Positions 1 to 42,047 are shown, counted from the first letter of the stretch. The stretch: 42,047 nucleotides of DNA from Escherichia coli (GCF_051903065.1 NZ_CP178441.1), one strand, 5' to 3'. Notes: generated from the letters alone by a model not told the origin. Made by a program: numbers and translations.

Positions 1-963
1 GATGCTGTGTACCGGTTTGAAGCCTGTATCTGGAAAATGAACGGTAAAACCTTCTTTGGGTGTAATGCCGGTGAACATGAAGCTGCTCATGTTATCAGTG
101 AATATTGCCGTGCTGATGACGGTAGCATTCCTATGTGGGGCCAGCACGGTGATTTTATCATCGAAAGTTTCAGTGGTATGCGAGCAAGGGTTAAGGTCGA
201 AGCCGGATGTATGATGGGTTATCTTTCCACCTCGTTTCATGCCGTTGATTTAAACGCCCCCTTTGTATCCGAAACAGGGTATCGTTCGCATTTTGTACAG
301 CTTTCAGATGTCAAACCTGGAGAAACCGTTGATGCACACGTATCCCGCGTATTTCAAAGCCTGATTGACGCCAGAAAGAAACCTGCTTTTATCTCTGCTG
401 ATTTCCGTGACAGGCTGGCATCTGAGCCTTTGCCTGATTGGTTAAAATCCCTTTCGCCCCCCCCTGATAGAACGCCTCTAACGCTCCCTGACGGCTTTGT
501 TAGGGTTGAGGCGTTATTACCCGCCTCTAAAGCATTTATCGCCCGTAAATGGGCTGTAGCAGCTCAGGAACGCATTACAGCTATTATGCAGAGAGAGCAG
601 GAGGCTGAAAGAGAAACTATGCGGGCCGAAAGCGAACGGCGCAAGCAACTGGCAAAGGAGCGTTCCAAAGAATACAAAGAGCGGATGATTACTGTTCAGC
701 ATTATAAAGAATTTTACGTTGGTGCTCGATGTGAAATCGTGAGTGTGCATCATCCGGTGTTTGCTAAAAATATTGGCACTATTGTAAAAATCGTTACGAT
801 ATACGATTCAGGATGTGTGGAGGCGCATGAAGATAAGCCTATACGTTATCGAATCAACCGTCGCGGAACTCAGGTAGTGGATTTTGACCCTACTTGCGTT
901 CGTACTTTTTACAATATTGATCAACTGAAATTACTGGAAGACAACAAAACAGGTGAATCGTGA
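1..963 (+). CDS. klcB: KlcB-like protein, 3' part (ORF open to window start; ORF track 7..963); carries a KorA-like C-terminal-domain motif
   Basis: Frame is open from nt 1. Internal motif LPDGFVRVEALLPASKAFIARKW matches the KorA/TrbA C-domain motif seen in 2764..3108 and 38389..38793. Position between klcA and korC matches the RK2 kilC operon. Confidence 0.55.
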   Translation, partial: DAVYRFEACIWKMNGKTFFGCNAGEHEAAHVISEYCRADDGSIPMWGQHGDFIIESFSGMRARVKVEAGCMMGYLSTSFHAVDLNAPFVSETGYRSHFVQLSDVKPGETVDAHVSRVFQSLIDARKKPAFISADFRDRLASEPLPDWLKSLSPPPDRTPLTLPDGFVRVEALLPASKAFIARKWAVAAQERITAIMQREQEAERETMRAESERRKQLAKERSKEYKERMITVQHYKEFYVGARCEIVSVHHPVFAKNIGTIVKIVTIYDSGCVEAHEDKPIRYRINRRGTQVVDFDPTCVRTFYNIDQLKLLEDNKTGES

Positions 964-1224
964 ATGCAAACTAAACCCTACCCTGTCTCAATCAGGTCAG
1001 AATGTTTTTTACCCTTTGGTGCGGGATGGGATTGTCCTACGCCAGAAGAAATTCGTACTTTGATGCAGATAGCAGAGCTAACAGGAAGCAAAGCAGCCAC
1101 ACTGACCGGTCTGAAAGACAGCCGAACCGTCAGGCGCTGGGTTGGGGGGGATACACCCATTCCTTTTTCGGCCTGGGCTATTCTGGTTGAATATGCAGGA
1201 TTGGGTAAAATCTGGAAGGTGTGA
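964..1224 (+). CDS. korC: KorC-like small transcriptional repressor (86 aa)
   Basis: ATG overlaps the klcB stop (TGAATG). Size and position match RK2 KorC. Four 17-bp palindromic operators of KorC type occur in the window. Confidence 0.55.
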   Translation: MQTKPYPVSIRSECFLPFGAGWDCPTPEEIRTLMQIAELTGSKAATLTGLKDSRTVRRWVGGDTPIPFSAWAILVEYAGLGKIWKV

Positions 1225-1231
1225 AACAGAT

Positions 1232-1244
1232 TTTAGCTGCTAAA
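1232..1244. promoter_or_regulatory. KorB-type operator (OB) TTTAGCTGCTAAA
   Basis: 13-bp palindrome with the RK2 OB consensus arms TTTAGC/GCTAAA, just upstream of a -35 hexamer. Confidence 0.6.
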
Positions 1245-1245
1245 A

Positions 1246-1275
1246 TTGCAATTATAGGACAATATGTCCTATAAT
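1246..1275 (+). promoter_or_regulatory. Sigma70-like promoter TTGCAA-18-TATAAT overlapped by KorC-type operator TAGGACAATATGTCCTA (1255..1271)
   Basis: Hexamers and spacing read directly. The 17-bp perfect-arm palindrome covers the spacer and -10, as at RK2 kleA/klcA promoters. Confidence 0.6.
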
Positions 1276-1321
1276 ATGCGTAAAGGTTTGGTAAACCACT
1301 TGAATAAAGCAGGAGGCCGGT

Positions 1322-1645
1322 ATGACCAATGTCGTTAAATTTCCTCGTCAAGAGGGAAGTAAACCGCAGCAAATTCGGGCGGTCGAGGATGTCGCTGGTC
1401 CAGCATCAGAAAACACAGTACGTAATATTCTGTATGGTGTCATTGGTGCGGTATACATGGTGCTGGTTATTCTCTGGATTCCTGTTCGCTTCCTGCTGAT
1501 CGCGAACGTTGTCATCCAGTTTTTTAAAATGCTTTTTAAATGGAGTGATGGCCCATTTGCTGCAGCCTGGCCGTTCGTGACCAGTTTCCTTGTACTGGCT
1601 ACTCTCACTTACATTATGGCAACGTGGAAACCCAAAGTGTCATAG
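1322..1645 (+). CDS. small integral membrane protein (kle-position), function unknown
   Basis: AGGAGG RBS 6 nt upstream of ATG. Product has two long hydrophobic helices. Confidence 0.6.
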   Translation: MTNVVKFPRQEGSKPQQIRAVEDVAGPASENTVRNILYGVIGAVYMVLVILWIPVRFLLIANVVIQFFKMLFKWSDGPFAAAWPFVTSFLVLATLTYIMATWKPKVS

Positions 1646-1720
1646 ATAGAATGAATGCGTTGGCATTTCTGATTATATAATGTCAGTTAATTTCTAATTG
1701 TAAATTATAGAGGGTTTAAT

Positions 1721-1972
1721 ATGAGTATGGATCTATCTCATCTGGCCGAAATGACACCTTCTGATGAAGCACGATTTTTTACCGTTTTTGATAGACAACT
1801 TGGATATGATGCAGGTGAAGAAGCCCGTGCCAATCTTCTTAGTGGCGTACCTATTTATTACGCTGAACGAAATACACCAGAAGGGTGTGTTATAAAAGAA
1901 TATCCAGATGGCCGTAAGGAACTGGTGAGTTTCATGACTGGTACAGAAAAAGTAGTTGAGGTTAAGCTCTGA
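1721..1972 (+). CDS. hypothetical 83-aa protein, putative antitoxin partner of the downstream kinase
   Basis: Stop overlaps the start of the next gene (TGATG coupling). AT-rich leader upstream. Confidence 0.5.
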   Translation: MSMDLSHLAEMTPSDEARFFTVFDRQLGYDAGEEARANLLSGVPIYYAERNTPEGCVIKEYPDGRKELVSFMTGTEKVVEVKL

Positions 1973-2562
1973 TGCGTCCTCAACTCTGGGTTATTGCTGG
2001 GCCTAATGGTGCAGGAAAATCTACCCTAGTTAAGCGACATATCCTTGGGAAAATAGAGGTTGTTAACCCTGATGATATTGCGCGGGAACAAGGTATAAGC
2101 AATCGAAAGGCAGGAGAGCAGGCACTTTTTCTGCGCACGGAAAATATCAAAAATAGATGTACTTTCGCTGTAGAAACGACACTCACAGGAATGGGGGAGA
2201 TTAAGTTAATGCAGCTTGCTGCAACTGCAGGTTACAAAATTAATTTAATCTATGTGGGGGTGAAAGATGTAGGAATGTCAGTAGCTCGCGTTAACCAGCG
2301 TGTAAGCCTTGGTGGTCATAATGTGCCTGTTGATGATATTTTCAGACGATACGAGCGTTCTGTAACCAACCTACCTAAAGCTATGGCCGTGGCTGACCGG
2401 GTATGGGTATTTGATAACAGTTATAACAGACGGCGATTACTTTTCCGCACAGAACAAGATAAAACAAAGTTCATTTCTAATGATTTGCCTGATTGGTTTA
2501 AAAAAGTCGCTGGGACAGAGATTGAGCAGGCCAGAATGAAAAAGAAGAAATTAAGTCGTTAG
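1972..2562 (+). CDS. P-loop kinase of zeta-toxin/AAA_33 type (putative toxin)
   Basis: Walker A GPNGAGKST near the N-terminus, followed by a VVNPDD segment and an HNVP...RRYERS segment typical of zeta-like kinases. Translationally coupled to the upstream small ORF. Confidence 0.55.
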   Translation: MRPQLWVIAGPNGAGKSTLVKRHILGKIEVVNPDDIAREQGISNRKAGEQALFLRTENIKNRCTFAVETTLTGMGEIKLMQLAATAGYKINLIYVGVKDVGMSVARVNQRVSLGGHNVPVDDIFRRYERSVTNLPKAMAVADRVWVFDNSYNRRRLLFRTEQDKTKFISNDLPDWFKKVAGTEIEQARMKKKKLSR

Positions 2563-2660: not shown

Positions 2661-2706
2661 TTTAGCAGCTAAAATTATTGACCTGCATACGTGGTTTAGC
2701 TAAACT
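2661..2706 (+). promoter_or_regulatory. korA-type promoter: OB (2661..2673), -35 TTGACC (2678..2683), KorA operator GTTTAGCTAAAC (2694..2705) overlapping -10 TAAACT
   Basis: Operator sequences and arrangement match the RK2 korA promoter (OA over the -10, OB just upstream of the -35). Confidence 0.7.
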
Positions 2707-2763
2707 TTGTTTGCGGTGTCATTAAGGCGTCTAGTTAAAGGTGTTGAACCGGGAAGTAAATTT

Positions 2764-3108
2764 ATGACGACTGTTAATAATAATGATCCGCATGTTGCCA
2801 AAACGGGCAATGAAAAAAAACGCCTGACTAATGAGGTATTTGCAAGAGTTACCCGAAGCCTGAATGTTGGTAAGCAAACGCTTGATATCGCTTACGGCGT
2901 ACTGGTTGAAGGAAGACCGCAGAAATATTTTGTTGAAACGCTGGATATTTCTCGCGGGGCTGTTTCTCAGGCAGTTAACAGAGTGTGGGATGCCTATAAA
3001 CAAGAAGTACCTGACGGTTTTGTGCGTATTGAAGTAGTGTTACCGGAGCGGCAGGCTTTCATTGTTAAAAAGTGGGCTGACGAGGCAAAACGTAAACAGG
3101 AAGAATAG
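2764..3108 (+). CDS. korA: KorA global repressor (ORF track start 2707 is probably an upstream extension)
   Basis: Strong similarity to recalled RP4 KorA: HTH segment GAVSQAVNRVW and C-terminal VLPERQAFIVKKWADEAKRKQEE. Confidence 0.8.
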   Translation: MTTVNNNDPHVAKTGNEKKRLTNEVFARVTRSLNVGKQTLDIAYGVLVEGRPQKYFVETLDISRGAVSQAVNRVWDAYKQEVPDGFVRIEVVLPERQAFIVKKWADEAKRKQEE

Positions 3109-3110
3109 CG

Positions 3111-3875
3111 ATGGCTATGAAAGTATTGGTTACAGCAAATCAAAAAGGTGGTGTTGGCAAGACTTCCACCCTGGTTCATCTGGCATTTGATTTTTCAGAA
3201 CGAGGCAAGCGGGTTGCTGTAATCGATATGGATACCCAGGGCAACGCCTCTTTTACCCTGAAACAGTTCTCGTCCGGCATTAAAGCGAATGAAATGTGGG
3301 GCGAGATCGAGCCAACTCGCTTTACCCAAATGCCTGAGAGCGGAATTTCTCTCATTGAGTCAGATATTCAACTAGCAAACGTAGAAAAATTAAATCTGCC
3401 GGAAATGGTGAAGCAGTTCCGCCATAACCTGCAGCAGCTGGCGGACAGTGGCTTTGACGTCTGCCTGATTGATACTGCGCCTACGGTTAACAATGCGCTT
3501 ATAGTTGCGCTGGCGAGCGCTGATTTTGTGGTATGCCCTATTGAGCTTGAGGTGTACTCAATTCAGGGTATTAAAAAAATGCTGACCACTTTCACCCAGG
3601 TGAAACGCAAAATGAACAGCAAGCTGGAATTTATTGGTATGGTTCCAAGTAAGGTAGATGGCCGCAATCCTCGCCATGTAAACCACCTGCAGGAGCTGCA
3701 GACGGCCTACCCTACGTTAATGGTTCCTGTGTCTGTCGGGTTGCGAAGCAGCATTGCTGATGCACTGGCTTCACATGTCCCTGTCTGGAAAATCAAGAAG
3801 ACAGCAGCACGTAAAGCCAGCCAGGAAATGAGAGCACTGGCCTGTCATGTTTTTACTAAGATGGAGATTGCATAA
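3111..3875 (+). CDS. incC: IncC / ParA-family partition ATPase
   Basis: Deviant Walker A KGGVGKTS and a ParA-like fold signature. Immediately precedes the ParB homolog, with stop/start overlap. Confidence 0.85.
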   Translation: MAMKVLVTANQKGGVGKTSTLVHLAFDFSERGKRVAVIDMDTQGNASFTLKQFSSGIKANEMWGEIEPTRFTQMPESGISLIESDIQLANVEKLNLPEMVKQFRHNLQQLADSGFDVCLIDTAPTVNNALIVALASADFVVCPIELEVYSIQGIKKMLTTFTQVKRKMNSKLEFIGMVPSKVDGRNPRHVNHLQELQTAYPTLMVPVSVGLRSSIADALASHVPVWKIKKTAARKASQEMRALACHVFTKMEIA

Positions 3876-4888
3876 TGACTAAAAAAAATTCTTCCGGCCT
3901 TGGCCTTGATACCGTTGGTGATCTCTCCGACTTTCTTGATGCGTCTGCAGGTGCTGAGGGTAAACCACTGATGCTGGACGTTGATGCGATTGATCCCGAT
4001 CCTGAACAACCGCGTAAGCAGGACAACCCAGGGTTCTCAGAGGAATCCATTAAGGAGCTGGCTGATACCATTAAAGCGCGTGGTGTGAAAATGCCTGTCT
4101 CCGTTCGCGAGAATCCGGAGCAAGCGGGGCGCTATATTATTAACCATGGAGAACGTCGCTGGCGAGCCAGTAAAGTGGCCGGGAAGAAACAAATTCCCGC
4201 TTTTATCGATAATGACTATAGCGACGATGATCAGGTCATTGAGAACATCCAGCGTAATGACCTGACGGCGCGTGAAATTGCCGTACACATTGGCCGCAAA
4301 CTGGCTGAGGGGGTATCAAAATCTCAGATTGCTAAACGGCTTGGCAAGTCGCCAGCGTTCGTAACCCAACACGCAGCGTTGCTGGACCTGCCGGATTGTA
4401 TAGCAGATGCTTTTAATAAAGGTTCAATCCGTGATGTTACCGTAGTTAATGAGCTGGTAACGGCTTACAAGCAAGACCCGGAAGAAGTTCAAAAACTGCT
4501 TGAAGAGAACGAGGGTGAAGACATTACCCGTAGTGCGGTGAAAGTTTTCCGTGAGTTCCTGGACGAAAAAGAATCCAGCAAGCGTGATCCAGACACCATT
4601 GACGCCTTCAATGGCCGTACCGATTCGGAAGCTGCCGAAGATGATACGGACGGCCACGATGATAACGATGTGACCGATAAGGTCCGTAAGACGCCAGAAA
4701 AGGAAACCGATCCTGATAAATTCAAAAAGGCTATTGTTATCGTTGAGTACCTGGGGGAGCAGGGCCGCCTTATCCTGACCAAGCGCCCAAGTGAAGAAGG
4801 GCTTGCCTGGATTAAGTTTGATTCAACTGGTGTAGAAGAAGAGCTAAATCTCGAAAACGTGAAAATAATTTGCCTTATTGAAGGATAA
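3875..4888 (+). CDS. korB: KorB / ParB-family DNA-binding partition and global regulator protein
   Basis: ParB box HGERRWRAS and HTH segment SKSQIAKRLGKSPAFVTQH. Eleven cognate 13-bp OB palindromes are present on the replicon. Confidence 0.85.
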   Translation: MTKKNSSGLGLDTVGDLSDFLDASAGAEGKPLMLDVDAIDPDPEQPRKQDNPGFSEESIKELADTIKARGVKMPVSVRENPEQAGRYIINHGERRWRASKVAGKKQIPAFIDNDYSDDDQVIENIQRNDLTAREIAVHIGRKLAEGVSKSQIAKRLGKSPAFVTQHAALLDLPDCIADAFNKGSIRDVTVVNELVTAYKQDPEEVQKLLEENEGEDITRSAVKVFREFLDEKESSKRDPDTIDAFNGRTDSEAAEDDTDGHDDNDVTDKVRKTPEKETDPDKFKKAIVIVEYLGEQGRLILTKRPSEEGLAWIKFDSTGVEEELNLENVKIICLIEG

Positions 4889-5468: not shown

Positions 5469-5822
5469 ATGAGCAAACAGCGTGTTCTTGTCATGAACGG
5501 CCAGCGAGTGCTGCAAAGCGAAGAAGCTGGAAAATGGAAAAATGACAATGTTGATAGAGCTGGCAGCATAAAGCCAGGCATTTACCCGCTTTATCTGTCC
5601 AAGGGGCCGGATAAAGCCAGCTCTTATAATGGGCCGATTTTACACGCAGATAAGCAATCAGTATATCAGCAGGTAGGTAAGCAGATTTTCAAGCATGATC
5701 GCCAAAATTTCGATAAACTGCCAGAAGTAGGTACGGAAAAAAGTATTTCGTATGACCAGACTTCCGGTAAAGCTCAGGTAGCAGCAGCCACAGAGAAGCA
5801 GGGCCGGAAGTTCTCCAGATAG
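5469..5822 (+). CDS. hypothetical protein (kfr/upf-position)
   Basis: GGAG RBS before the ATG. Position corresponds to the kfr/upf54 block of IncP-1. Confidence 0.5.
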   Translation: MSKQRVLVMNGQRVLQSEEAGKWKNDNVDRAGSIKPGIYPLYLSKGPDKASSYNGPILHADKQSVYQQVGKQIFKHDRQNFDKLPEVGTEKSISYDQTSGKAQVAAATEKQGRKFSR

Positions 5823-5843
5823 CGAATAGCGTAGGAGTCCCGG

Positions 5844-6524
5844 ATGAAGCCAACTACCCCATTTAAAAATCCCGGCGCGGTCCGGGATACCTCCTCCCCT
5901 CATCAGCAGCTTGATATTACACCTGATCTTCTCGCAGAGTCGGAAGCCGTAAATATCCAGGAACAGGTACAGCAACTGCATGACGAACAGCAGCAGTTGA
6001 TCAATGACCCTTCCCATTTGCAGGATTCGCAAACTGACGCCGGTAACATTGAGCAGGAATATAAGGATGCGGTAGAGGCGGCAGTAGCGGATAAAGAAAC
6101 GCAGGCAGAAAACCTTGAAAACCGGCTGGAATCGCTGATAGACAAGCAGGAGGCGGTTCTGCAGCAGATGATGAGTCGTCAGCCTGGGTTTTTGGCTCTG
6201 CCCGGCCAGAAGGCAAAATGGAAGTCACAGGTGCAACAACAACAGTCATTGCTGAGTCGCCTGCAGAACCGGCTGGAAACTGTCAAAGAGATTCATGACG
6301 GGATGGGGTTACATGGCCCGCGTATACACGAACTTGCGACGGCCAAAGTGCGGCATGATAAACCAGAGCTTGCCGAAGGATGGGATGAAATGCGGGCTGC
6401 ACAGCGAGCGCATGAGAATCTCATGCGGAAGCAGGCGAAAGAACAGAAAGAAAAGCTACAAAGAGAGCAGGCTCCATCACTAAGTAAAGGGAATGGTCTG
6501 AGCCTTACACGAACAATAACTTGA
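5844..6524 (+). CDS. Q/E-rich coiled-coil protein (Kfr-like position)
   Basis: AGGAG RBS. Highly charged, Gln/Glu-rich sequence consistent with long alpha-helical coiled coil, in the position where IncP-1 plasmids carry kfr genes. Confidence 0.5.
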   Translation: MKPTTPFKNPGAVRDTSSPHQQLDITPDLLAESEAVNIQEQVQQLHDEQQQLINDPSHLQDSQTDAGNIEQEYKDAVEAAVADKETQAENLENRLESLIDKQEAVLQQMMSRQPGFLALPGQKAKWKSQVQQQQSLLSRLQNRLETVKEIHDGMGLHGPRIHELATAKVRHDKPELAEGWDEMRAAQRAHENLMRKQAKEQKEKLQREQAPSLSKGNGLSLTRTIT

Positions 6525-6681: not shown

Positions 6682-7122
6682 TCACTTGTAAAACGTTGCA
6701 ATGAATGCGACGGCAGCAGCCATTAAGGTGATCACCGCCGCCGCCATATTCATCATGGCAAGTTTTCTTGCCCCTTCTATGTGCGCCCGCGATTTTCTGA
6801 TCTCGTCCTGAACTTCCTTTCTGATTATGACAGCGGTTTCTGTGGCGGCAGATGTCAAAACCCGCTCCATTACTTCCGTATTCGCCTTTAGCGCGGCGTT
6901 AAGGATACGGTCAGCCTTATCCTTCGCGCTGTAATCCCATTGCATCAGGGCGCTTTGTAGCTCGGATTTAAACTCATCCAGAATTTCACCCTGTTTCTCC
7001 TGGCTTTCATCCAGCAAATAACGAAGCAGGGTAGGAACGACCATAATCGGATCGGTTTCATCCAGGGCTATACCATGCTTTTTAGCAATGAGCGCAATGA
7101 GTTCTTCCGTCTTATCATCCAT
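6682..7122 (-). CDS. traM: TraM-like transfer protein
   Basis: Last gene of the traK-traL-traM leading-region operon by synteny with RP4. Start overlaps the traL stop. Confidence 0.5.
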   Translation of the reverse strand: MDDKTEELIALIAKKHGIALDETDPIMVVPTLLRYLLDESQEKQGEILDEFKSELQSALMQWDYSAKDKADRILNAALKANTEVMERVLTSAATETAVIIRKEVQDEIRKSRAHIEGARKLAMMNMAAAVITLMAAAVAFIATFYK

Positions 7123-7907
7123 CAGATCACCGTTGCTAAATCAAGCTGTTCGAAAATAAGGGCGCGAACCTGTTTCAGACGCTGGCGAACCATAATAGAT
7201 AATGATTTATCTTCAATGGCCTCATCGAAGGTCTTGTAGTTTTCCAGCATGTCGGCAAAGTCCTGGCCGTGTAACTCCTTTTTGAGTGTAGGCAAACGGA
7301 TAAGCGCATCAACCTTGTCTTTATTCATCAGGTACGCTTCTGATTCTTCGAATGGCACTCCCTGATCGGATTCCACCGCGCCCCAATACGGGTTAAGCCA
7401 GACAACAAAACGGGTTTCTGACGGATACTGCTCCACCATGGCCTTGAACCCCTCGACGGTGTAATCATGTGCCTGCCCCCCCACAATCGAGATATGAATG
7501 ACAAGCTGTTTACCCATTTCATAAAGCAGGGCGGGGATTTGCTGGCTAATCATATAACTTGATAACGGAATAAATGACGGAGCGCCGTTATCGATAATAA
7601 CGTCCCTATCACCGGCTTCATCAATCCACTGGATGAGGGTATCCAGTTTGCGCTGATTAATTTCATCACCTTCCATGATGTTCAGCTGTCGGACGTTCAG
7701 TTTTTCATAATTAGAGAATGTAGGATTGAGCGGATCGGTATCGATGCACAGCGGTAGCTCACCTTTGCTAATCTTGTACATTGCCACCAAAGCGGTGCTA
7801 ACGGATTTACCACAACCACCTTTTCCTTGCTGGGCGCTGTGAACAGCATGGCGTACCGGCACTGATTCAGCTTCACTCTGTTTTTTATTTTTGTCTGCAG
7901 TAGGCAT
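7122..7907 (-). CDS. traL: TraL-like P-loop protein
   Basis: Nucleotide-binding motif GKGGCGKSVSTALVA. Position between traK and traM as in RP4. Confidence 0.55.
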   Translation of the reverse strand: MPTADKNKKQSEAESVPVRHAVHSAQQGKGGCGKSVSTALVAMYKISKGELPLCIDTDPLNPTFSNYEKLNVRQLNIMEGDEINQRKLDTLIQWIDEAGDRDVIIDNGAPSFIPLSSYMISQQIPALLYEMGKQLVIHISIVGGQAHDYTVEGFKAMVEQYPSETRFVVWLNPYWGAVESDQGVPFEESEAYLMNKDKVDALIRLPTLKKELHGQDFADMLENYKTFDEAIEDKSLSIMVRQRLKQVRALIFEQLDLATVI

Positions 7908-8341
7908 TAGTTAGTCCCCTTCTTTTTTCCAGGATTAAAATTGAAAGATGGCAGCTGACTGCCGGTATTCGTAGGCGGCTCTCTTTTGACCGGCGTTCTC
8001 TCCGGGATCACTGTTTCTTTCTTCGGTGACGGACCGGTTTGTTGGCTTTCTTTCTTTACCGTAGCTCCAGCAGGTGTACTTTCGCTAACAGCAGCTGCAC
8101 GTTTTCGTTCATCTATGTATCGCCGGACATGCCGACGAAAAGTTTCGTATGTGGTATTAACACGACCAGTTTCGTGCATGTGTTCCCATATCGTAGTAAG
8201 AGAGTAACCGGCTTCAATCGCATTTCTGACGTCTTCCCGGATTGCCAGGAAGACTACCCTCCCGCTGTTTGCACTCTTGCCGTTCAGCCCCTTTTTCTGC
8301 TTAACCCACTCCTGTAGGTCAGTTAAATAGTCTTTTCCCAT
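7907..8341 (-). CDS. traK: TraK-like oriT-binding relaxosome accessory protein (ORF track start 8455 is probably an extension through the promoter repeats)
   Basis: Transcribed divergently from traJ across oriT. Internal ATG at 8341 (MGKDYLTDL...) is preceded by repeat-rich non-coding-like sequence. Confidence 0.5.
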   Translation of the reverse strand: MGKDYLTDLQEWVKQKKGLNGKSANSGRVVFLAIREDVRNAIEAGYSLTTIWEHMHETGRVNTTYETFRRHVRRYIDERKRAAAVSESTPAGATVKKESQQTGPSPKKETVIPERTPVKREPPTNTGSQLPSFNFNPGKKKGTN

Positions 8342-8354
8342 CCGATAACCTGCG

Positions 8355-8396
8355 TGTGTATTTATGAGGTATTTCTGTGTATTTACGTGTGTATTT
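8355..8396. repeat. three direct repeats of TGTGTATTT (8355..8363, 8376..8384, 8388..8396) between traK and oriT
   Basis: Read directly from the sequence. Location matches the TraK-binding/promoter region of RP4 oriT. Confidence 0.5.
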
Positions 8397-8519
8397 GAGC
8401 AGGATAACAGTTGTAAACCGCCCGGAAAACCTTGGTTTTCCGGTGTATGTGGCATAGTAACGCCGTTTTTTCGTTATATCCACAGTTTTACATCAAAAAA
8501 CACGACATTCCACTTTTCT

Positions 8520-33164: not shown

Positions 33165-33179
33165 GTTTCGGCCCCGAAT

Positions 33180-33887: not shown

Positions 33888-36427
33888 GCAGCAACCTCAT
33901 ACTCGTAATCATTTAAGTCCAGTCCCTTAGTGCGTAGCCATTCATCAACCCAGCCATCACCGTATGTTTCAGACAGTTGTTTAATTGTTGCGATTGAATC
34001 GGGATCTGTGGCTCCTACAAATGCCAACGCAAGTGGCCCTAGTGCAAGCTGATACAGGCGACGACCTTGTTCGGATACATAGTAGTAATCGCGTTTTGGT
34101 ACAGCTGACGCGATGATTTCAATTTGGCGGCGATTAAGCCCCATATTGATATACAGAGACATAGCTTCTTCCTGCAGGGCATTGCCGTTTGGCAAGAAAA
34201 ATCTGGAGGCAGTTGACTCAATAATGACATCAAGAATGCCAGAATTGGCCGCATCACTAAGCTGCTGAGTTGCCATAAGAACAGCGCAGTTTTTCTTCGC
34301 CATGGATTTAAGCCAGTCGCGGATTTTTCCCCTGAATTCTGGATGACCCAGCATGAGCCAAGCCTCATCAAGAATGATGAGTGTAGGATTACCATCCAGA
34401 GATTCTTCAATGCGACGAAAGAGATAGAGCAGCACAGGTAGTGCGTATTTCTGATCCATGTTCATAAGGTGTTCAATCTCGAACGTCATGAAATCAGAAA
34501 TATCAAGACCATCTTCCTCTGCATCAAGCAGATGCCCCATGTTGCCATCAATGGTGTATTGTTTGAGCGCCTCACGAATAACATTGTTCTGTACCGTGAC
34601 TGTAAATTCAGACAGGGTTTTGGAATGAGTCTCAGACATACTCTTAATAGCATCAGCTATAGAGTTGCGCATAGGTGCGTCAACATTGACCCCATTTAGG
34701 ATCAGAATGGCTTCAATCCATTCCATCGCCCATGTGCGGCGAGTAGGGGTATCAAGGCGTGATAAAGGTGCAAACGCCAGTTGGTTATCATCACCGGCAA
34801 TCGTGAAATGTTTTCCACCTACAGCCTTGCAGGTTGCAAACATCGACAGTCCTTTATCGAAAGTGAAAATTCGCGAATTAGAGTAACGACGCCACTGCAT
34901 AGCGGTTAACGCCAGGTGGGTAGACTTACCTGCACGGGTTGGCCCAAACATGAAAGCGTGGCCGAGATCACGAACATGTAGGTTAAGTCTGAACGGAGTG
35001 TTTCCAGAAGTAACGCAGTGTGTTAATGGCGGTGCACCTACTTCGAATAGCGGACTTGGGGCTTTATTTTCGCCCGGCCAGATAGTGCTGGTTGGCATCA
35101 GATCGGCAAGGTTAAGAGTGTTTACCAGCGGTCGCCGTACGTTTTCAACACCGTGGCCTGGTAAGGAACCAAAGTAGGCATCCACCGTATTTACTGTTTC
35201 AATTCTCGCAGCGAAGCCAGTATTGTTAACAGCCTTGCGCATAAACTCTGCGGCATCCTCGACCTTCTGGCGGTCCTCATTCATCAGGACAATGACACTG
35301 GTTATATAACCTTGGCTGACTAAACCAGAGTTAGTTTCTGCAATAGCGGAAGATGCATCGTTGACCATGGACAAGGCGTCTTCATCAACGTAACCGTTAT
35401 TGGTATTGAATAGCTGGGACATAAAGCCGCGTACTTTCTGTTTCCATTTCCTGCGGAATGCCGTCAGTTTTGATATGGCTTCGTGAGAATCAAGGAAAAT
35501 AAAGCGCGTAGACCAGCGGTATTCACATGGCTGCTCGGCCAGCTTGCTGAGAATGCCTGGATAAGATTCAGAGGGGTAGCCTTCAATCGCCACAACCTGA
35601 ATGAAGTTTTTCCCGATACGTGGCGTGATGCCAGGAATAAACTCCTGACCACCAATGAGGCTATCCAGATAAATAGGATTGTTTGGCAGACGTATAGGAT
35701 GTTGCAGCCCCGTAATGCAATACTGCAGGTACTCCAGCTGCTGATCCATCGTTGCAACGGAGCCGTCTTCCTGTTCGATTTTCACGCCGTTCAGTCGTTC
35801 AATCGAAACAGCCTGCGAAAGGTTTGCCTGAATTATGCTGATCTCATGCTTAAATTTTTCAATGAGATTCAGCGTAGTGTCTTTATCGGTAGAAACTTCG
35901 CGTTCATCATCAAACATCAGTTCCGTGAATTTACTTTCCGCCAGTGCAGGTGGAAACCAGGTGAACGTAACGATAAAGCAGCCTTCGTACAGTTGCCCCA
36001 GCTTTTCAAACAGGCGGCGACGTTCTTCATCCACGGCAGCGGAAACTCGATCAGGAAAGTGTGAAGCGTTTCGGTCACTGTATGACGGAGCCGGATTGCG
36101 AATCGCATCAACGTGCATCATCCAGCCGTTGCCGAGTCTGCCAATTGCCTTATTAATACGAAATGAGACAAGCTCTCTTTCCTGGTCTGTCGCACTCGCG
36201 TTGTCTGCACCTTTAAAAAAGAAAGACGCCATAAAAGAACCGTTCTTACATACGATTACACCATCATCAACAACAGCGGCGTAATTAAGCATGTCGGCGA
36301 AGGATTCATCCTTTGAGCGATATTTTTTAAGGTGATATTCCTTCACCATACGCTGATAGTAAGCCAGCATCATGCCAAGCAAGATCAGCCCTATCAGCGC
36401 AACTAAAACAGGAATTGCGGTATTCAT
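33884..36427 (-). CDS. trbE: TrbE / VirB4 ATPase
   Basis: Walker A GPTRAGKSTHL. 847 aa. Synteny. Confidence 0.9.
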   Translation of the reverse strand: MNTAIPVLVALIGLILLGMMLAYYQRMVKEYHLKKYRSKDESFADMLNYAAVVDDGVIVCKNGSFMASFFFKGADNASATDQERELVSFRINKAIGRLGNGWMMHVDAIRNPAPSYSDRNASHFPDRVSAAVDEERRRLFEKLGQLYEGCFIVTFTWFPPALAESKFTELMFDDEREVSTDKDTTLNLIEKFKHEISIIQANLSQAVSIERLNGVKIEQEDGSVATMDQQLEYLQYCITGLQHPIRLPNNPIYLDSLIGGQEFIPGITPRIGKNFIQVVAIEGYPSESYPGILSKLAEQPCEYRWSTRFIFLDSHEAISKLTAFRRKWKQKVRGFMSQLFNTNNGYVDEDALSMVNDASSAIAETNSGLVSQGYITSVIVLMNEDRQKVEDAAEFMRKAVNNTGFAARIETVNTVDAYFGSLPGHGVENVRRPLVNTLNLADLMPTSTIWPGENKAPSPLFEVGAPPLTHCVTSGNTPFRLNLHVRDLGHAFMFGPTRAGKSTHLALTAMQWRRYSNSRIFTFDKGLSMFATCKAVGGKHFTIAGDDNQLAFAPLSRLDTPTRRTWAMEWIEAILILNGVNVDAPMRNSIADAIKSMSETHSKTLSEFTVTVQNNVIREALKQYTIDGNMGHLLDAEEDGLDISDFMTFEIEHLMNMDQKYALPVLLYLFRRIEESLDGNPTLIILDEAWLMLGHPEFRGKIRDWLKSMAKKNCAVLMATQQLSDAANSGILDVIIESTASRFFLPNGNALQEEAMSLYINMGLNRRQIEIIASAVPKRDYYYVSEQGRRLYQLALGPLALAFVGATDPDSIATIKQLSETYGDGWVDEWLRTKGLDLNDYEYEVAA

Positions 36428-36750
36428 TTTTTCACCCTTTCATAACGTTTGCCTTGGGTTCCTGTATTTTTGCGGAACGGCGTGGCACGGGGCGCATAAT
36501 ACGGCTGGTTGTATTTGAGGCTACGTAGATAAACATGACGTAACATCGGATCTGATTTAGCCATTTTCCTTAACAGGAAAAGTGATCCCCCCCACATCAC
36601 TATGCCTATACCAACAGCGATCCAGTCTTGTGACATAAAGATAAGGACCGCTGCCAGTAGGATTGAAAACATAACCAATTCACGGTCCCCGCCCATGAAG
36701 AGGTTCGTTCTTGAAGCCGCCCTACGAATGGGGATCGTGCGTAATGCCAT
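36424..36750 (-). CDS. trbD: TrbD / VirB3
   Basis: Small membrane protein overlapping the trbE start. Synteny. Confidence 0.75.
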   Translation of the reverse strand: MALRTIPIRRAASRTNLFMGGDRELVMFSILLAAVLIFMSQDWIAVGIGIVMWGGSLFLLRKMAKSDPMLRHVYLRSLKYNQPYYAPRATPFRKNTGTQGKRYERVKK

Positions 36751-36752
36751 GG

Positions 36753-37136
36753 TTATGCCGCTCCCCCAGTTTTAGAACCAGTCAGCATTGCTACCAGTTC
36801 GGCCCCCTGCCCTGTGATTGCAGACAAAGTGTTTTGTGCTGCAACTAGAAAGCTAAGAACAAGAACGATGAAAATCAGAGTGCGAAGGAATCCGTTCATA
36901 TCACCGCCAAAGATCAACATCGCACCTGCACCGACAATGCCGATAATGGAAGCGGTAAATGCAAATGGTCCTGTAATAGAAGTACGGATATTGGTCATCC
37001 AGTCATCGAACGGCAAGCCACCGCCTGATGTGTTTGACGCCAGAGCAGGTTCAGCTGCCATGAGGAACAGCATGGCACCTAAAAATGCAATAAAGGCGTG
37101 CTTGCTCAGATTGAAGTGGAATAAACCTGTTTTCAT
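36753..37136 (-). CDS. trbC: TrbC pilin precursor (VirB2 family)
   Basis: Core closely matches recalled RP4 pilin (LIFGG..N.F.RTLIF.VLV..LV.AQN), with a cleavable C-terminal tail. Confidence 0.85.
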   Translation of the reverse strand: MKTGLFHFNLSKHAFIAFLGAMLFLMAAEPALASNTSGGGLPFDDWMTNIRTSITGPFAFTASIIGIVGAGAMLIFGGDMNGFLRTLIFIVLVLSFLVAAQNTLSAITGQGAELVAMLTGSKTGGAA

Positions 37137-37249
37137 TAAATAACCCCTTATAAAGGTTGTTCTGGAATGATTTGAATTAGGTTGAGCTTTATGGCCTGCT
37201 CAATGGCCTGAGTTTCGTTGCTGTGTGTAGTAGATATGCCCTCCATGTT

Positions 37250-38206
37250 TTAAGCCGCAATGAGTTGGGAAATATATTCCCCGTTTTCATAACCCTGAAT
37301 CTCGCGAATTTCTTTAATCCGGCGACCCTCAGAAGTTTTAGATATCTGAACGATCACGTTGACCGCTTCGCCAATTACCGGCTCAATTTCTCGCGGAGCA
37401 AAGGGGTTACGTGAGATTAAAGAACGCAGACGCGTGAGAGCAGAAAGTGTGTTGTTGGCGTGAAGTGAGGCCGCGCCGCCCTCATGACCGGTGTTCCAGG
37501 CGTCAAGCATATCGAGAGCTTCTGGACCGCGAGTCTCGCCTACGAAAATACGGTCAGGTCGCATACGCAGGATCAGACGAAGAATGTCAGTCATAGTGAC
37601 ATTAATGGTGGTGTGATATTGAACAAAATTCAGCGCGGCGCACTGCAGTTCGCCCGTATCTTCGATAATGCAGATGCGCTCGTCTGGAAACTGACGAACT
37701 ATTTCAGCAATGATGGCGTTTAACAGCGTTGTTTTTCCTGAACCAGTACCACCAATAACTAAAATATTTTTATGAGCGGCAATTGCGCGACAAATAAAAT
37801 CAGCCTGCACCCTGGTCATTACGCCTTTATCTACATATTCATCCAGAAGGAAAATACGTGAGGCTTTCTTACGAATAGCAAAGGTTGGACCTGCAACCAG
37901 TGGCGGCAGTTGACCAGCAAAACGGGAACCGTCAATAGGGAGTTCACATTCAAGAAATGGCGAGTTGGAATCGATAATCTTTTTGTGAAAGCCCGCGATA
38001 GTTTGAATAATGGTTTTTGAACGTTGTACAGGCACAGTTCCCATGCAGAACATGGGTTGACCGAATTTTTCACGCCATAACTTACCATCTGGATTCAGCA
38101 TTATTTCTAGTGTTTCAGGATCTTCTAACGCTTCCATTAGGCTTCGTCCCATGTCCCTTTTGAGCTTTTCTATCGCTCTTAAATCGACGGAATCTACAGT
38201 GTCCAT
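37250..38206 (-). CDS. trbB: TrbB / VirB11 secretion ATPase
   Basis: Walker A GGTGSGKTTLLNA. Synteny. Confidence 0.9.
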   Translation of the reverse strand: MDTVDSVDLRAIEKLKRDMGRSLMEALEDPETLEIMLNPDGKLWREKFGQPMFCMGTVPVQRSKTIIQTIAGFHKKIIDSNSPFLECELPIDGSRFAGQLPPLVAGPTFAIRKKASRIFLLDEYVDKGVMTRVQADFICRAIAAHKNILVIGGTGSGKTTLLNAIIAEIVRQFPDERICIIEDTGELQCAALNFVQYHTTINVTMTDILRLILRMRPDRIFVGETRGPEALDMLDAWNTGHEGGAASLHANNTLSALTRLRSLISRNPFAPREIEPVIGEAVNVIVQISKTSEGRRIKEIREIQGYENGEYISQLIAA

Positions 38207-38388: not shown

Positions 38389-38793
38389 TTAACTGTTTTT
38401 CTTTTCTTGCATGATCTCCAGCATTGCTTTGGCTTCTTGCTCTAACTTCTGACGTGTATGTTCACTCCACATTCGTACCCGAAAGGCTTGCTGTTCAGAA
38501 AGAATTACGGACACTCTTACATATCCAGGAGGGAGACTTTTTACAGGTTTTCCATCAGCCATAAGCATAAGACTGTGTTCATCAAGGTCAGTTGTTTCAA
38601 GGAGAACGGGAAGGGCTACATCGAGGGCATTAGCAATGGATTCCATCACCCTTAAAGATGGGTTCGCTTTTCCATTTGTTAGGTCCGACAAAAAAGAGAT
38701 TGAAACCCCAGCTTTTTGGGATAGTTCCTGCTTTGTCATGTCTCTTTCTTCAAGAAGTCTGAGGATGTTAGTAAAAAAAATTAGGTTGTACAC
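38389..38793 (-). CDS. trbA: TrbA repressor (XRE HTH plus KorA-like C-terminal domain); likely GTG start
   Basis: HTH MTKQELSQKAGVSISFLSDLTNGK and C-terminal PPGYVRVSVILSEQQAFRVRMW, which matches the KorA C-domain motif. Confidence 0.75.
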   Translation of the reverse strand: MYNLIFFTNILRLLEERDMTKQELSQKAGVSISFLSDLTNGKANPSLRVMESIANALDVALPVLLETTDLDEHSLMLMADGKPVKSLPPGYVRVSVILSEQQAFRVRMWSEHTRQKLEQEAKAMLEIMQEKKNS

Positions 38794-38818
38794 GATACGC
38801 TTACGCCTCGATGTAAAT

Positions 38819-38863
38819 TTTAGCGGCTAAAATATTGACCGAATTAAATTGTTTAGCTAAACT
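38819..38863 (+). promoter_or_regulatory. ssb-trfA promoter region: OB (38819..38831), -35 TTGACC (38835..38840), KorA operator GTTTAGCTAAAC (38851..38862) overlapping -10 TAAACT
   Basis: Same operator/hexamer geometry as the korA promoter at 2661..2706. Corresponds to the RK2 trfA promoter, divergent from trbA. Confidence 0.7.
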
Positions 38864-38897: not shown

Positions 38898-39272
38898 ATG
38901 AAAAATCTTAATCGTTTTCAGTTTATCGGAAATCTAACAAAAGACACAGAGTTACGGTATACAGCAAAAAGCACACCAATCGCAATTTTCGATATAGCGG
39001 TTAACGGGAGCTATAAAGATCAGGAAACCGGTGAAATTAAGGAATATACCGACTTTTTCCGCATCAAGGTATGGGGTAAGGCTGCAGAAAACGCTGCAAA
39101 GTTCCTAGGGAAAGGCTCGCAGGTCTTTGTAGAAGGTTCTATGCGTAACACCCAGTATGAATCAAACGGCCAAAAAGTGTATGGCATCGATTACATTGCA
39201 GAGAATATTCAGTATTTAAATATAAAATCCCCGGCAAGCAGTTCCGCAGTTGCAGGTAAGAAAACTGATTGA
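38898..39272 (+). CDS. ssb: single-stranded DNA-binding protein (OB fold, no acidic tail)
   Basis: SSB-like OB-fold sequence. Position upstream of trfA as in RK2. Confidence 0.75.
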   Translation: MKNLNRFQFIGNLTKDTELRYTAKSTPIAIFDIAVNGSYKDQETGEIKEYTDFFRIKVWGKAAENAAKFLGKGSQVFVEGSMRNTQYESNGQKVYGIDYIAENIQYLNIKSPASSSAVAGKKTD

Positions 39273-39295
39273 TGGGGCAAGATGGTATAGAATGG

Positions 39296-39318
39296 AAGGC
39301 CCGATGAGGGCCTTTTCT
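39296..39318 (+). terminator. hairpin/attenuator between ssb and trfA (AAGGCCC-GATGA-GGGCCTT then TTCT)
   Basis: 7-bp stem with a short T-rich tail. Confidence 0.4.
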
Positions 39319-39346
39319 CAATGCGCTTCAAAGCGGTGAGGCACTT

Positions 39347-40225
39347 ATGAAGAATGACAATAATAATTCTGAACTTGAAAAGCTAAAAAAGGCAGCGCTT
39401 GATCAGCGCTCCAGAATGGCGAATGAAGGGCAGACAGAGAAGCAACTGACGCTATTTGACATTGCACCATGGCCGGATTCGATGCGGGCATTACCTAACG
39501 ATTATGCTCGTTCTGCTCTGTTTACTGTCAAGAATAAACGTCAGCCCCGTGAAGCACTGCAGAAGAAAGAGATTTTCCACATTAATAAAGATGTGCGGAT
39601 CACCTATACCGGGCTTGAGTTACGTGCTGATGACGATGAACTTGTGTGGCAGCAGGTTCTTGAATACGCCAAAAGGAAACCAATGGGTGAACCTATTACC
39701 TTCACGTTTTACGAACTTTGCCAGGATCTAGGCTGGTCTTATAATGGTCGTTATATAGAAAAGGCCGAGGAGTGCCTAACACGCCTACAGGCAACAGCCA
39801 TGCAATTTATTTCTGAGCGTGTCGGTCAACTGGAGTCTGTTTCATTGATTGGTCGCTTTCGCGTTCTTGACCGTGGGAAACGGTCGTCAAGATGTGAAGT
39901 CATCATTGATAAAGAGATGGTTTTGCTTTTTGCAGGTGAGCACTATTCAAAGTTTGTGTGGGAGAAATACCGTAAACTTTCACCTACAGCTCGCCGCCTC
40001 TTTGATTACTTTGGTTCTCACCGGGAGCCATATCCTATGAAATTAGATACATTCAAGATGATGTGTGGCTCGGAATCCGACCGCCTGAAAAAGTGGCGAG
40101 AGCAGGTTAATAAAGCATGTGCTGAGCTTAAAGATAGTGGGTTAATTCATAGTGCTTGGATAGATAAAGATCGTATTCATTGCAAACGAACTAACGATGC
40201 CGCAGCGAGGAATGGTGACACTTGA
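39347..40225 (+). CDS. trfA: TrfA replication initiator (iteron-binding Rep)
   Basis: Very close to recalled RK2 TrfA (LFDIAPWPD, ITFTFYELCQDLGW, KYRKLSPTARR). Cognate iterons follow immediately. Confidence 0.9.
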   Translation: MKNDNNNSELEKLKKAALDQRSRMANEGQTEKQLTLFDIAPWPDSMRALPNDYARSALFTVKNKRQPREALQKKEIFHINKDVRITYTGLELRADDDELVWQQVLEYAKRKPMGEPITFTFYELCQDLGWSYNGRYIEKAEECLTRLQATAMQFISERVGQLESVSLIGRFRVLDRGKRSSRCEVIIDKEMVLLFAGEHYSKFVWEKYRKLSPTARRLFDYFGSHREPYPMKLDTFKMMCGSESDRLKKWREQVNKACAELKDSGLIHSAWIDKDRIHCKRTNDAAARNGDT

Positions 40226-40540
40226 GGGGCACATATTTTTTTTATGACAGTTGAGGGGCGCTTTATTGCGCCCTTCTTTGTTTAGGACGAGTTTAGCCCG
40301 CACGAAATTTTGTTTAGGCGTATAGAGCTTAACCAGACGTTAGAATTATCCCCTTAATTTGTGGATAAGTCTGTTAATATCCCGGTAAAGATACGACATT
40401 TAAGGGGCGGAAAGGTGACACTTGAGGGGCGCTATTATGACATATGAAGGGCGCTATCATGATATTTGAGGGGCGGAAAGGTGACACTTGAGGGGCGCTA
40501 TTATGACATATGAAGGGCACTATCATGACATTTGAGGGGC
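40216..40540 (+). repeat. oriV iterons: nine copies of TGACA-N-TTGAGGGGC-like 15-17-mers (two at 40216..40259; seven at exact 22-bp spacing from 40394 to 40540)
   Basis: Repeat sequence matches the RK2 iteron consensus. 22-bp periodicity read directly. The first iteron overlaps the trfA stop codon. Confidence 0.85.
40360..40368 (-). promoter_or_regulatory. DnaA box (TTATCCACA on the minus strand); a second near-consensus box at 40544..40552
   Basis: Exact 9-mer consensus read between the two iteron groups. Confidence 0.55.
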
Positions 40541-40680
40541 GCTTGTGGATATGATTTTCCATGTTTTTCATATTGATACAGTTGTTTTCCACAACCCTCT
40601 AACCAGATCTTAACCGATCTTTTAACCGATCTTTTAACCATTTCTAACCAAAAGAAATAACCTGTTATTTTAACCGGCGT
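40541..40680. other. oriV A+T-rich region with tandem AACCGATCTTTT-like repeats (candidate DNA unwinding element)
   Basis: Approximately 12-13-bp direct repeats between 40601 and 40672, immediately after the iterons. Confidence 0.5.
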
Positions 40681-40800
40681 CATAGACGCCCCCGAAGGGG
40701 GGAAACCCCCCTTCTCAATCCCACCCGGCCGCAAGCGGCCTCCCATCCCCCCAGGGGCAAGCCCCTCGACCGCAAGCGGTCTTCACCCCAAATTTTTCTC
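40681..40800. other. oriV G+C-rich segment with G/C runs and two copies of CCGCAAGCGG
   Basis: Read directly. RK2 oriV has an analogous G+C-rich block after the A+T-rich region. Confidence 0.45.
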
Positions 40801-41298
40801 ACTCGCTTCGCGAGCTTAGGCCGCTTCGCTCTGCCAGAGATAAATCTCTGGCCAACCACACCAACCAACGTGCAAAACATTCAATTCTTAAAAATTCCTC
40901 ACCAAAACAGCTTGATAAGTACTCGCTTGAATTACCAAGCACACTTCGAAATTCCGTATTCGCTATAAACTCGAAAAGTTTTACACCAAGGAAAAGCCGT
41001 TTAAGGGGTTCCAAGCCGGAAACGGGGTTTGAGGGCCAACCGTACGAAAACGTACGGTAAGGGGGCCGCTTGGCATTCGGAAAATAAACCACGTTAAGAC
41101 TATTTTTTAGCCAAAAGACTTTTAGAAATCGCCAGAATGGCGGGACAACAGCAGTTTTGGTGTCCGAAATCGTACAATTTTTACGTTCAGTAAGTTAGCT
41201 GGCCTGGATGTAACCATCCGTTCAACTCAATTCTCTTGGCGTGGGAAAATTTCCGAATTCCAAGCTGATCCCTGCTACGGCTCCATCAATAATAATGC

Positions 41299-41327
41299 TT
41301 GAACAATAGGACAAAATGTCCTATTAT
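41299..41327 (+). promoter_or_regulatory. klcA promoter TTGAAC-17-TATTAT overlapped by KorC-type operator TAGGACAAAATGTCCTA (41307..41323)
   Basis: Hexamers plus a perfect-arm 17-bp palindrome. Same geometry as the promoter at 1246..1275. Confidence 0.6.
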
Positions 41328-41376
41328 GTGTTTGAAGGCCGAGTATATCACTCAGGTCAAATACCGGAGAACTCCG

Positions 41377-41844
41377 ATGAATAATGAAGTTATCGTTACT
41401 GCTCGTAAACTTACAGATTATGAAGAACGCCTGATGTTTATGCCGAAATTCTTCGGCCAATATTGGCTTTTTGTGGAAAACCACACTTATAACTGGATGC
41501 GTAAATTAAGTCCTGAAAATAAAAGCCAATATTTAAGTAGTGCGCTGGATAAAATTGAAGCCCATTACGATGGTGGTGAGTGGGATTTTTATGAACTTTC
41601 AAATGGTGGTTATTTTATGGCACCAAACAGCCGTGAACATTACCGTATTTCTGTCCAGGGTAATTACTTTGACGGTTTGTTAAGCGCAGAAGCTGCAGGT
41701 ATGGTGGCAACCAGTTTTGTGCTGGCCCAGCTTGCTAATTCTAATCTGCCATTTTCAGAAAAATGCTGTGCTTATTATCATCAGCTGTTTGATTACGCCA
41801 GCGGGCATCAAGAATATGCGCAGTTCCGTGCTGCCATCGATTAA
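41377..41844 (+). CDS. klcA: KlcA (ArdB/KlcA-family antirestriction protein); ORF track start 41299 is an extension through the promoter
   Basis: Similarity to recalled RK2 KlcA (...YELSNGGYFMAP..., AEAAGMVATSFVLAQLA). GGAGA RBS before the ATG at 41377. Confidence 0.8.
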   Translation: MNNEVIVTARKLTDYEERLMFMPKFFGQYWLFVENHTYNWMRKLSPENKSQYLSSALDKIEAHYDGGEWDFYELSNGGYFMAPNSREHYRISVQGNYFDGLLSAEAAGMVATSFVLAQLANSNLPFSEKCCAYYHQLFDYASGHQEYAQFRAAID

Positions 41845-41854
41845 GTGAGTCTTT

Positions 41855-41880
41855 ATCCCCTGCTCTGCAGGGGATTTTTC
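41855..41880 (+). terminator. hairpin plus T-run after klcA (ATCCCCTGC-TCT-GCAGGGGAT TTTT)
   Basis: 9-bp perfect stem followed by T-run. May act as an attenuator before klcB. Confidence 0.6.
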
Positions 41881-41891
41881 AGGGGGTTAAT

Positions 41892-42047
41892 ATGTCCAAA
41901 CATTATCCTGGCGATGACTCTCGCGATCAGCAAATGGAAGCCATTGCGCAGCAACTGCCGGACGACCATCGCATTCTTGACGTGGCATACTCAGCGCTAA
42001 TTGATTTGAATAAAGCCTGTATGACCGGCGATCCGCAACAGCGTCAT
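41892..42047 (+). CDS. klcB: 5' part of the klcB-like gene (runs off the window end; in frame with 1..963 if the molecule is circular)
   Basis: AGGGGG RBS and ATG at 41892. ORF is open to the last base of the window with an exact number of codons. Confidence 0.5.
   Translation, partial: MSKHYPGDDSRDQQMEAIAQQLPDDHRILDVAYSALIDLNKACMTGDPQQRH

Follow-up and report, generated by a model that had tools for sequence, protein, structure and literature searches.

The stretch of DNA analysed here (the window, 42,047 bp, from the Escherichia coli record NZ_CP178441.1) encodes the backbone of a plasmid of the IncP-1 type, with a trfA/oriV replication region, a korA-incC-korB central control operon, kfr, kle and klc genes and the two conjugation regions Tra1 and Tra2, interrupted by small accessory blocks (Table 1). 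The gene order, oriV-klcA-klcB-korC ... trbA-ssb-trfA-oriV, had been read correctly in an earlier note on this sequence. Two genes are of particular concern in what follows: klcB, whose two parts lie at opposite ends of the window, and traC, which contains a 351-bp fragment of an IS1294-type insertion sequence (IS).

The reading frame that runs off the 3' end of the window (41892..42047) comprises 156 nt, or exactly 52 codons, and is in frame with the open reading frame (ORF) entering at nt 1; both points had been claimed in the earlier note and both hold. When the two ends were joined, the frame remained open until a TGA at 961..963 and gave, as anticipated there, a single KlcB-like protein of 372 amino acids (aa) with full-length homologues, the remaining two frames across the join containing stops. 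The fused product is 100% identical to WP_023352240.1 of plasmid pCFSA664-2, and a database search with the fused ORF retrieved 89 homologues, many of them named klcB at the source and typically 357-374 aa in length. Alignment with KlcB of R751 (371 aa) extended over residues 7-364 of the 372 at 42% identity (E 1e-83), with no gap between residues 52 and 53, and KlcB of pDS1 is 64% identical to that of the window. The neighbours of the gene are klcA and korC. It is worth noting that Pfam searches gave no match for KlcB or KorC, the homology of both resting on database search and pairwise alignment. The split in klcB is a linearisation artefact of a record starting 156 nt into the gene, and not biology. 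As a separate observation, the window KlcB, when aligned by tblastn to pBP136 (NC_008459, the record used for all pBP136 comparisons; L013 5904-6926), spans two annotated ORFs, 5895-6023 and 6174-6959; klcB of pBP136 may be split, or annotated in two pieces.

An artificial junction query of 3,000 bp, composed of the final 1,500 bp and the initial 1,500 bp of the window, was 100% identical, in one piece, to four circular plasmids of 41,696 bp (NZ_CP033354.2, CP057780.1, NZ_AP027835.1 and NZ_CP127008.1), and seven further plasmids (41-41.5 kb) matched it at 99.6-99.9%. By BLAST, window base 42047 falls on position 23846 of NZ_AP027835.1 and base 1 on the adjoining position 23847, and a BLAST search with the whole window showed that NZ_AP027835.1 and pCFSA664-2 are wholly collinear with it. 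Minus the 351-bp insert, the window has the same 41,696 bp as these two plasmids, and four single-nucleotide polymorphisms (SNPs) were found, at 3590, 11662, 17799 and 23499. Among the 47 annotated proteins of pCFSA664-2, 46 are translated identically from the window, the end-joined KlcB included. No shared repeat of 10-500 bp was found between the two window termini, and comparison with the reference circles revealed neither overlap, gap nor foreign flank at the ends. The GC content varies little from one kb to the next (39-51%), and the per-kb scan disclosed no foreign island. Since there is neither a terminal overlap nor a gap, the window is, by comparison with these relatives, exactly one unit of the circle, one circular permutation cut open inside klcB; the earlier proposal of a complete circular replicon opened within this gene was borne out by the contiguity of the junction in the four reference plasmids.

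The close database matches are all from Escherichia, Salmonella, Shigella or Klebsiella. Among them, pCFSA664-2 has been described as a plasmid of 41,696 bp and 45.4% GC that is untypeable by PlasmidFinder and carries an 'IncP-1-like trfA' (Hu et al., PMC6675977), and it was subsequently grouped with pDS1, pMCR_1511, pHS102707 and pEN3600 into IncP/P-1 'clade II' (Hayakawa et al., 2022; PMC9499019). Members of this clade, which occur in Enterobacteriaceae and fail to replicate in Pseudomonas, are described as possessing the short trfA2 form only and as resembling E. coli in nucleotide composition (PMC9499019). The window agrees with this description, being four SNPs away from pCFSA664-2, encoding a TrfA of 292 aa and having a GC content of 45.4%; the plasmid type is thus already known, and belongs to an ordinary, described lineage. 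Comparison of GC content with IncP-1 reference backbones, as suggested in the earlier note, placed the window near pDS1 (47.1%) and far below pBP136 (65.1%). Two points weigh against an unqualified IncP-1 label, namely the absence of a PlasmidFinder type for pCFSA664-2 (PMC6675977) and a GC content of 45% versus 65% in pBP136; because of these, 'IncP-1' holds only in a broad phylogenetic sense, meaning the low-GC, Enterobacteriaceae-restricted clade II and not the classical broad-host-range group of 60-65% GC. What had been called an IncP-1 circle therefore stands as regards TrfA, the iterons, the kor operators and Tra1/Tra2, and needs the clade II qualifier.

A stronger version of the same doubt would treat the plasmid as a separate enterobacterial family merely sharing ancestry with IncP-1, so that the label would be wrong. 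Besides the GC gap and the PlasmidFinder result, MOB-suite assigns rep_cluster_2175 and not IncP, and clade II, apart from its inability to replicate in Pseudomonas, includes mini-replicons that are compatible with those of clade I (PMC9499019). We consider this explanation unlikely in view of the full backbone synteny, the RK2-type iterons, the OA and OB operators and a TrfA that is 64.5% identical to that of pBP136; moreover, mini-pDS1, whose TrfA is 94% identical to the window protein, was incompatible with mini-pBP136, although other clade II minis were compatible (PMC9499019). Another explanation concerns the extent of the replicon: an assembler, or the windowing itself, could have cut one unit out of a cointegrate, a multimer or a copy integrated in the chromosome, in which case no free replicon would be at hand. 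A related backbone does sit within a 205-kb cointegrate record (NZ_CP117189.1), and it counts against our interpretation that the evidence for circularity is a comparison with circular relatives. The exact adjacency of the first and last window bases in the reference circles, with overlap, gap and foreign flank all absent, and the occurrence of the backbone in about 60-70 free circular plasmids of 40-47 kb nonetheless make such an excision very improbable. Taking these lines of evidence jointly, we hold with high confidence that the window is a complete, circular, cargo-free and putatively self-transmissible IncP-1 clade II plasmid, with klcB split by linearisation and an IS1294-type piece in traC.

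In pCFSA664-2, traC is intact and encodes 1272 aa with ArdC-N, zincin peptidase, two DUF5710 and Toprim domains. The insert in the window copy amounts to 117 codons and includes a stop in frame, so that TraC ends after 687 native and 18 insert-read residues, a predicted product of 705 aa that keeps the ArdC-like and peptidase domains. This plasmid copy may have been left without TraC primase by the IS1294 fragment. From the biology of RP4, a plasmid lacking the TraC primase should still be able to pass from one E. coli cell to another.

The insert, the one feature of the window that is not ancestral when compared with its siblings, matches nt 1-351 of an IS of 1,688 bp at 100% identity; this IS lies between oriV and klcA in the sibling plasmid NZ_CP055103.1. 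With a slash marking the element boundary, the ends of this full-length IS read CTTG/ACGTATAGG... (also written CTTG/ACGTATAGGAAATTG...) and ...CCGTGGTTC/, and the window insert reads GGCTTG/ACGTATAGGAAATTG...CACTGGTTC/, where the CTTG target occupies 19179-19182 and traC resumes to the base, with no target duplication. The right end of the insert, TGGTTC (IS nt 346-351), is identical to the true terIS hexamer (nt 1683-1688), and the GTTC at this end is the only GTTC in the first 944 nt of the IS on that strand. The tetranucleotide cleaved at terIS in IS1294 is GTTC, and the family usually targets CTTG or GTTC (PMC13181058). Since both an intact gene for the HUH transposase and a genuine terIS with its subterminal palindrome are missing, the insert is a fragment and not a member element.

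We tentatively prefer, with limited confidence, the reading in which IS1294 transposition, ended early at an internal pseudo-terIS, gave rise directly to the 351-bp segment. Rolling-circle transposition would have started at oriIS, inserted 3' of CTTG in traC and stopped prematurely at the first GTTC inside the element, which is part of the pseudo-terIS TGGTTC; the insert would then leave the ArdC-like 705-aa product and sever the primase half from its start codon. Two observations weigh against this reading. The hairpin preceding the internal GTTC is weak (5 bp, -3.8 kcal/mol, z -0.34; the true terIS, -10.9 kcal/mol, z -1.49), and an identical sequence would be generated if a full-length insertion were followed by a deletion between its two copies of TGGTTC. 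The latter route, in which a complete IS1294 entered traC and slippage between the hexamers at IS 346-351 and 1683-1688, which are identical direct repeats, then removed 1,337 bp with no premature termination, is possible though somewhat doubtful: no full-length IS at this site was found in 72,556 plasmids and 5,426 complete E. coli genomes, GTTC is the known cleavage site of the transposase (PMC13181058), and the same GTTC forms the end of a second, independent remnant. This diverged IS1294-like remnant (IS nt 194-351; L006/L007 2442-2598, L009 1501-1544) lies upstream of tsh/hbp in ColV-type IncF plasmids, and as all three copies examined occupy the same tsh-linked locus, the class, which was found in a spread BLAST sample of plasmids, was counted as one independent event at most. 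An exact-pattern scan of genome and metagenome contigs yielded no other copies ending at this GTTC, a weak negative given that the positive control recovered only one full IS copy, in the genome contigs. As for an assembly artefact, through the splicing in of IS1294 reads that belong to a different replicon or through the collapse of a full IS, about 2,600 plasmid records contain IS1294-type elements, which are often co-resident with this backbone; the left boundary, however, is the exact oriIS end beside CTTG, the right boundary restores the target to the base, and the internal and terminal ends share 6 bp only, too short for graph collapse, which renders this origin decidedly improbable.

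Table 1. Features of the 42,047-bp window, in order of position, with the strand and the basis of each assignment.
Feature	Coordinates	Strand	Basis
klcB, codons 53-372 and stop (3' part)	1..963	+	Homologue search, R751 KlcB alignment
korC (86 aa)	964..1224	+	65% identical to pDS1 KorC, 55% to pBP136 korC
KorB operator 1232-1244 and KorC-like operator 1255-1271, upstream of kleE	1232..1271	.	Operator scans
kleE	1322..1645	+	Pfam KleE, E 1.5e-13
83-aa ORF and 196-aa zeta-toxin-family P-loop protein	1721..2562	+	Pfam Zeta_toxin, E 2.1e-9
Central control operon: OB/OA 2661-2705, korA 2764-3108, incC 3117-3875, korB 3875-4888	2661..4888	+	Pfam, operator scans
kfrB and kfrC	5469..6524	+	PGAP names of identical proteins; identity to pDS1 KfrB 82%, to pDS1 KfrC 73%
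traM, traL, traK	6682..8341	-	Annotation, pDS1/pBP136 homology
oriT / traJ leader region, including traJ-II RNA motif 8559-8659	8342..8688	.	Rfam RF01760, 97.4 bits, E 4e-18
traJ, traI (relaxase), 62-aa ORF, traG (coupling protein), traF, 109-aa ORF, traE (topoisomerase III), traD	8689..17116	+	
traC N-terminal fragment: 687 native residues and 18-aa insert-read tail, then stop	17122..19239	+	Domain search, comparison
351-bp oriIS-proximal fragment, IS1294-type (IS91 family), including last 59 codons of tnpA 19354-19533	19183..19533	-	
traC C-terminal part: two DUF5710 and Toprim primase, cut off from start codon	19534..21291	+	
tra-trb junction block: seven small/hypothetical ORFs, including Hha 21911-22090 and a 317-aa protein with ribbon-helix-helix N-terminus	21387..25541	.	
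ParA-type serine resolvase 25625-26239 and helix-turn-helix (HTH) regulator 26271-26639	25625..26639	+	Pfam Resolvase, E 1.1e-22; HTH_3
trbN, M, L, K, J, I, H, G, F, E, D, C, B (Tra2 mating-pair formation)	26804..38137	-	Annotation, homology
trbA 38389-38793 and divergent promoter region, OB 38819, OA 38851	38389..38862	-	Operator scans, homology
ssb 38898-39272 and trfA 39347-40225 (292 aa, short form only)	38898..40225	+	Pfam, homology
oriV: nine iterons TGACAnTTGAGGGGC, DnaA boxes 40360, 40544, 40585, A+T-rich repeats, then G+C-rich stretch	40216..40800	.	
Tn3-family-derived miniature inverted-repeat element, ~212 bp, in oriV-klcA spacer (putative)	41061..41272	.	Inverted-repeat search, homology
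KorC-like operator 41307-41323 and klcA antirestriction gene 41377-41844	41307..41844	+	Pfam Antirestrict, E 1.4e-25
klcB, codons 1-52 (5' part)	41892..42047	+	ATG at 41892, in frame with nt 1

The replication protein TrfA matched its Pfam profile at positions 26-282 of 282 (E 1.2e-144), and oriV starts at the end of trfA. The 17-bp RK2-type iteron was found nine times against 0.28 expected by chance, with two copies at 40216-40259 and seven at 22-bp spacing in 40394-40540. The oriV DnaA boxes comprise the sole perfect box of the window and two near-perfect ones; across the window as a whole there was no enrichment of such boxes (18 found versus 10.6 expected). In the central control operon, Pfam identified KORA, AAA_31/ParA (IncC) and ParB_N, KorB and KorB_C (KorB). 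Operator scans located 12 KorB (OB), two KorA (OA) and four KorC-like sites, the last with the palindrome TAGGACAnnnTGTCCTA, about zero of each being expected by chance; the OA sites lie at the korA promoter and at the trfA/trbA promoter. Judging by homology here and by the established biology of RK2/RP4, the short-form TrfA would bind the nine oriV iterons and start replication, IncC and KorB would partition the plasmid, and KorA, KorB, KorC and TrbA would repress the backbone operons through the mapped operators. It was also observed that the 580-bp gap between korB and kfrB (4889-5468) is devoid of annotated genes; a KorB operator (4959) and a hairpin resembling a terminator lie within it. 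At this position pBP136 has a gene for a DNA-binding protein, where reference IncP-1 plasmids have kfrA, and pDS1 is likewise without one.

The conjugation genes are arranged as Tra1 (traC-traM, oriT) and Tra2 (trbA-trbN) in the canonical order, which is the same as in pBP136 and pDS1, and near-identical records are typed as MOBP relaxase and MPF_T. The traJ-II motif stretch overlaps a sequence that closely resembles what we take to be the RP4 oriT nick region. By analogy with the known systems, oriT would be processed by TraJ, TraI and TraK and the DNA transferred by TraG and TrbB-TrbN, with recipient restriction being countered by KlcA and the ArdC-like N-terminus of TraC.

The earlier note saw no resistance genes, and this is upheld by the PLSDB tables of near-identical records, which contain no AMRFinder rows. 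It also reported no transposases or integrase: none is present intact in the window, although an IS91-family tnpA remnant (19354..19533) and a serine recombinase (25625..26239) are. Consequently, 'backbone-only', with small accessory blocks, is true as regards resistance and catabolic cargo and untrue in the sense of an untouched backbone, the IS fragment in traC, a putative Tn3-derived miniature element and the resolvase having been missed. The blocks that are lineage-specific relative to both pDS1 and pBP136 are the zeta pair, the tra-trb block, the HTH regulator (26271..26639) and the oriV-klcA spacer. When ten accessory ORFs were searched with PADLOC and NCBIfam, only sub-threshold P-loop and HTH noise was obtained, with no defence system or resistance family. 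In the kle region, the stop of the 83-aa ORF overlaps the start of the 196-aa zeta-like protein; the pair is absent from pDS1 and pBP136 and may constitute a toxin-antitoxin-like or kinase module. The serine resolvase, at 83.5% identity to ParA of pDS1, is assigned on this similarity as the backbone ParA.

The tra-trb junction block contains KorB operators at 22123-22135 and 23899-23911 and a tandem KorC-like pair at 23482-23524 (starts 23482 and 23508), and it is partly common to a 93%-identical mcr-1 plasmid. Because of the operators within it and the part shared with this relative, the block seems to be clade-specific backbone connected to the central regulon and not recent cargo; the operators suggest that its hypothetical genes are under plasmid central control. 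Two ~315-aa ORFs of the block were considered as paralogues, and comparison ruled this out. The SNP at 23499 relative to pCFSA664-2 falls one base past the first KorC-like site of the block.

The element in the oriV-klcA spacer was compared with the Tn3-derived miniature (TIME/IMU-like) type, which is defined by 38-bp terminal inverted repeats (GGGG...ACGTTAAG), no transposase and a 5-bp target duplication. Its inverted repeats are 73% complementary over 45 nt, the left arm being GGGGGCCGCTTGGCATTCGGAAAATAAACCACGTTAAG, and 41057-41179 is about 93.5% identical to a ~288-bp element of many IncF plasmids (e.g. L010 3003-3288; ~700 such plasmids when extrapolated from a spread sample). The window copy is without ~70 internal bp of the ~288-bp element and is apparently an internally deleted copy. 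No 5-bp target duplication or empty site could be defined, a relative without the element having an entirely different oriV-klcA spacer. The sibling plasmid L002 carries a complete IS1294 within the left repeat of the miniature element.

In annotation the window can accordingly be treated as a complete plasmid of IncP-1 clade II, conjugative and free of resistance genes, with one split klcB in place of two truncated genes. The lineage provides the chassis, empty here, on which other plasmids carry mcr-1 and blaCMY-42, and also blaKPC-2 or blaIMP-8 (PMC9499019); cargo-free members help to define this backbone and the hot spots for insertion into it. The allele with the IS fragment was absent from the 72,556 plasmids and 5,426 E. 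coli genomes searched, all else being already described. The fragment is a small curiosity that bears on the termination of IS91-family transposition. If early termination did produce it, IS91-family elements can shed sub-unit-length 'mini' insertions besides the over-length one-ended products known before, and the fragment, which would keep oriIS and a cleavable GTTC, might be remobilised in trans by a resident IS1294 transposase; TraC would have been divided, its ArdC-like antirestriction part standing as a protein of its own and its primase part not being expressed.

Compared with known plasmids, the window shares its circle, gene order and 45.4% GC with pCFSA664-2 (CP033354; Salmonella Indiana; 41,696 bp) and the siblings NZ_AP027835.1, CP057780.1 and NZ_CP127008.1, and it alone has the 351-bp IS1294-type fragment in traC. 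The cryptic, expert-annotated IncP-1eta plasmid pDS1 (KC170283; clade II; 40,596 bp) is collinear with it at 75.6% nucleotide identity over 33.9 kb, with 37 syntenic proteins; both have the short TrfA only, lack kfrA, are cargo-free and are low in GC, whereas pDS1 has trbP, parB, higBA and a TlpA-domain gene and the window has instead Hha, the zeta-like pair and further small ORFs. Plasmid pBP136 (41,268 bp), the archetype of a backbone-only IncP-1beta plasmid, is of similar size and likewise free of cargo, and has 34 syntenic proteins at 30-75% identity. It shares with RK2/R751 and the window the iteron core TGACAnTTGAGGGGC and the operators OB TTTAGCSGCTAAA and OA GTTTAGCTAAAC, but differs in its 65.1% GC, long-form TrfA (407 aa), kfrA and kleA, the window having 45.4% GC and the KorC operator TAGGACAnnnTGTCCTA. 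With IS1294/IS1294b, which encode a rolling-circle HUH transposase, the fragment has in common the oriIS-proximal 351 nt, the CTTG target and the GTTC end; the aberrant products described for IS1294 run past terIS by one-ended transposition, whereas the fragment in the window stops short of it.

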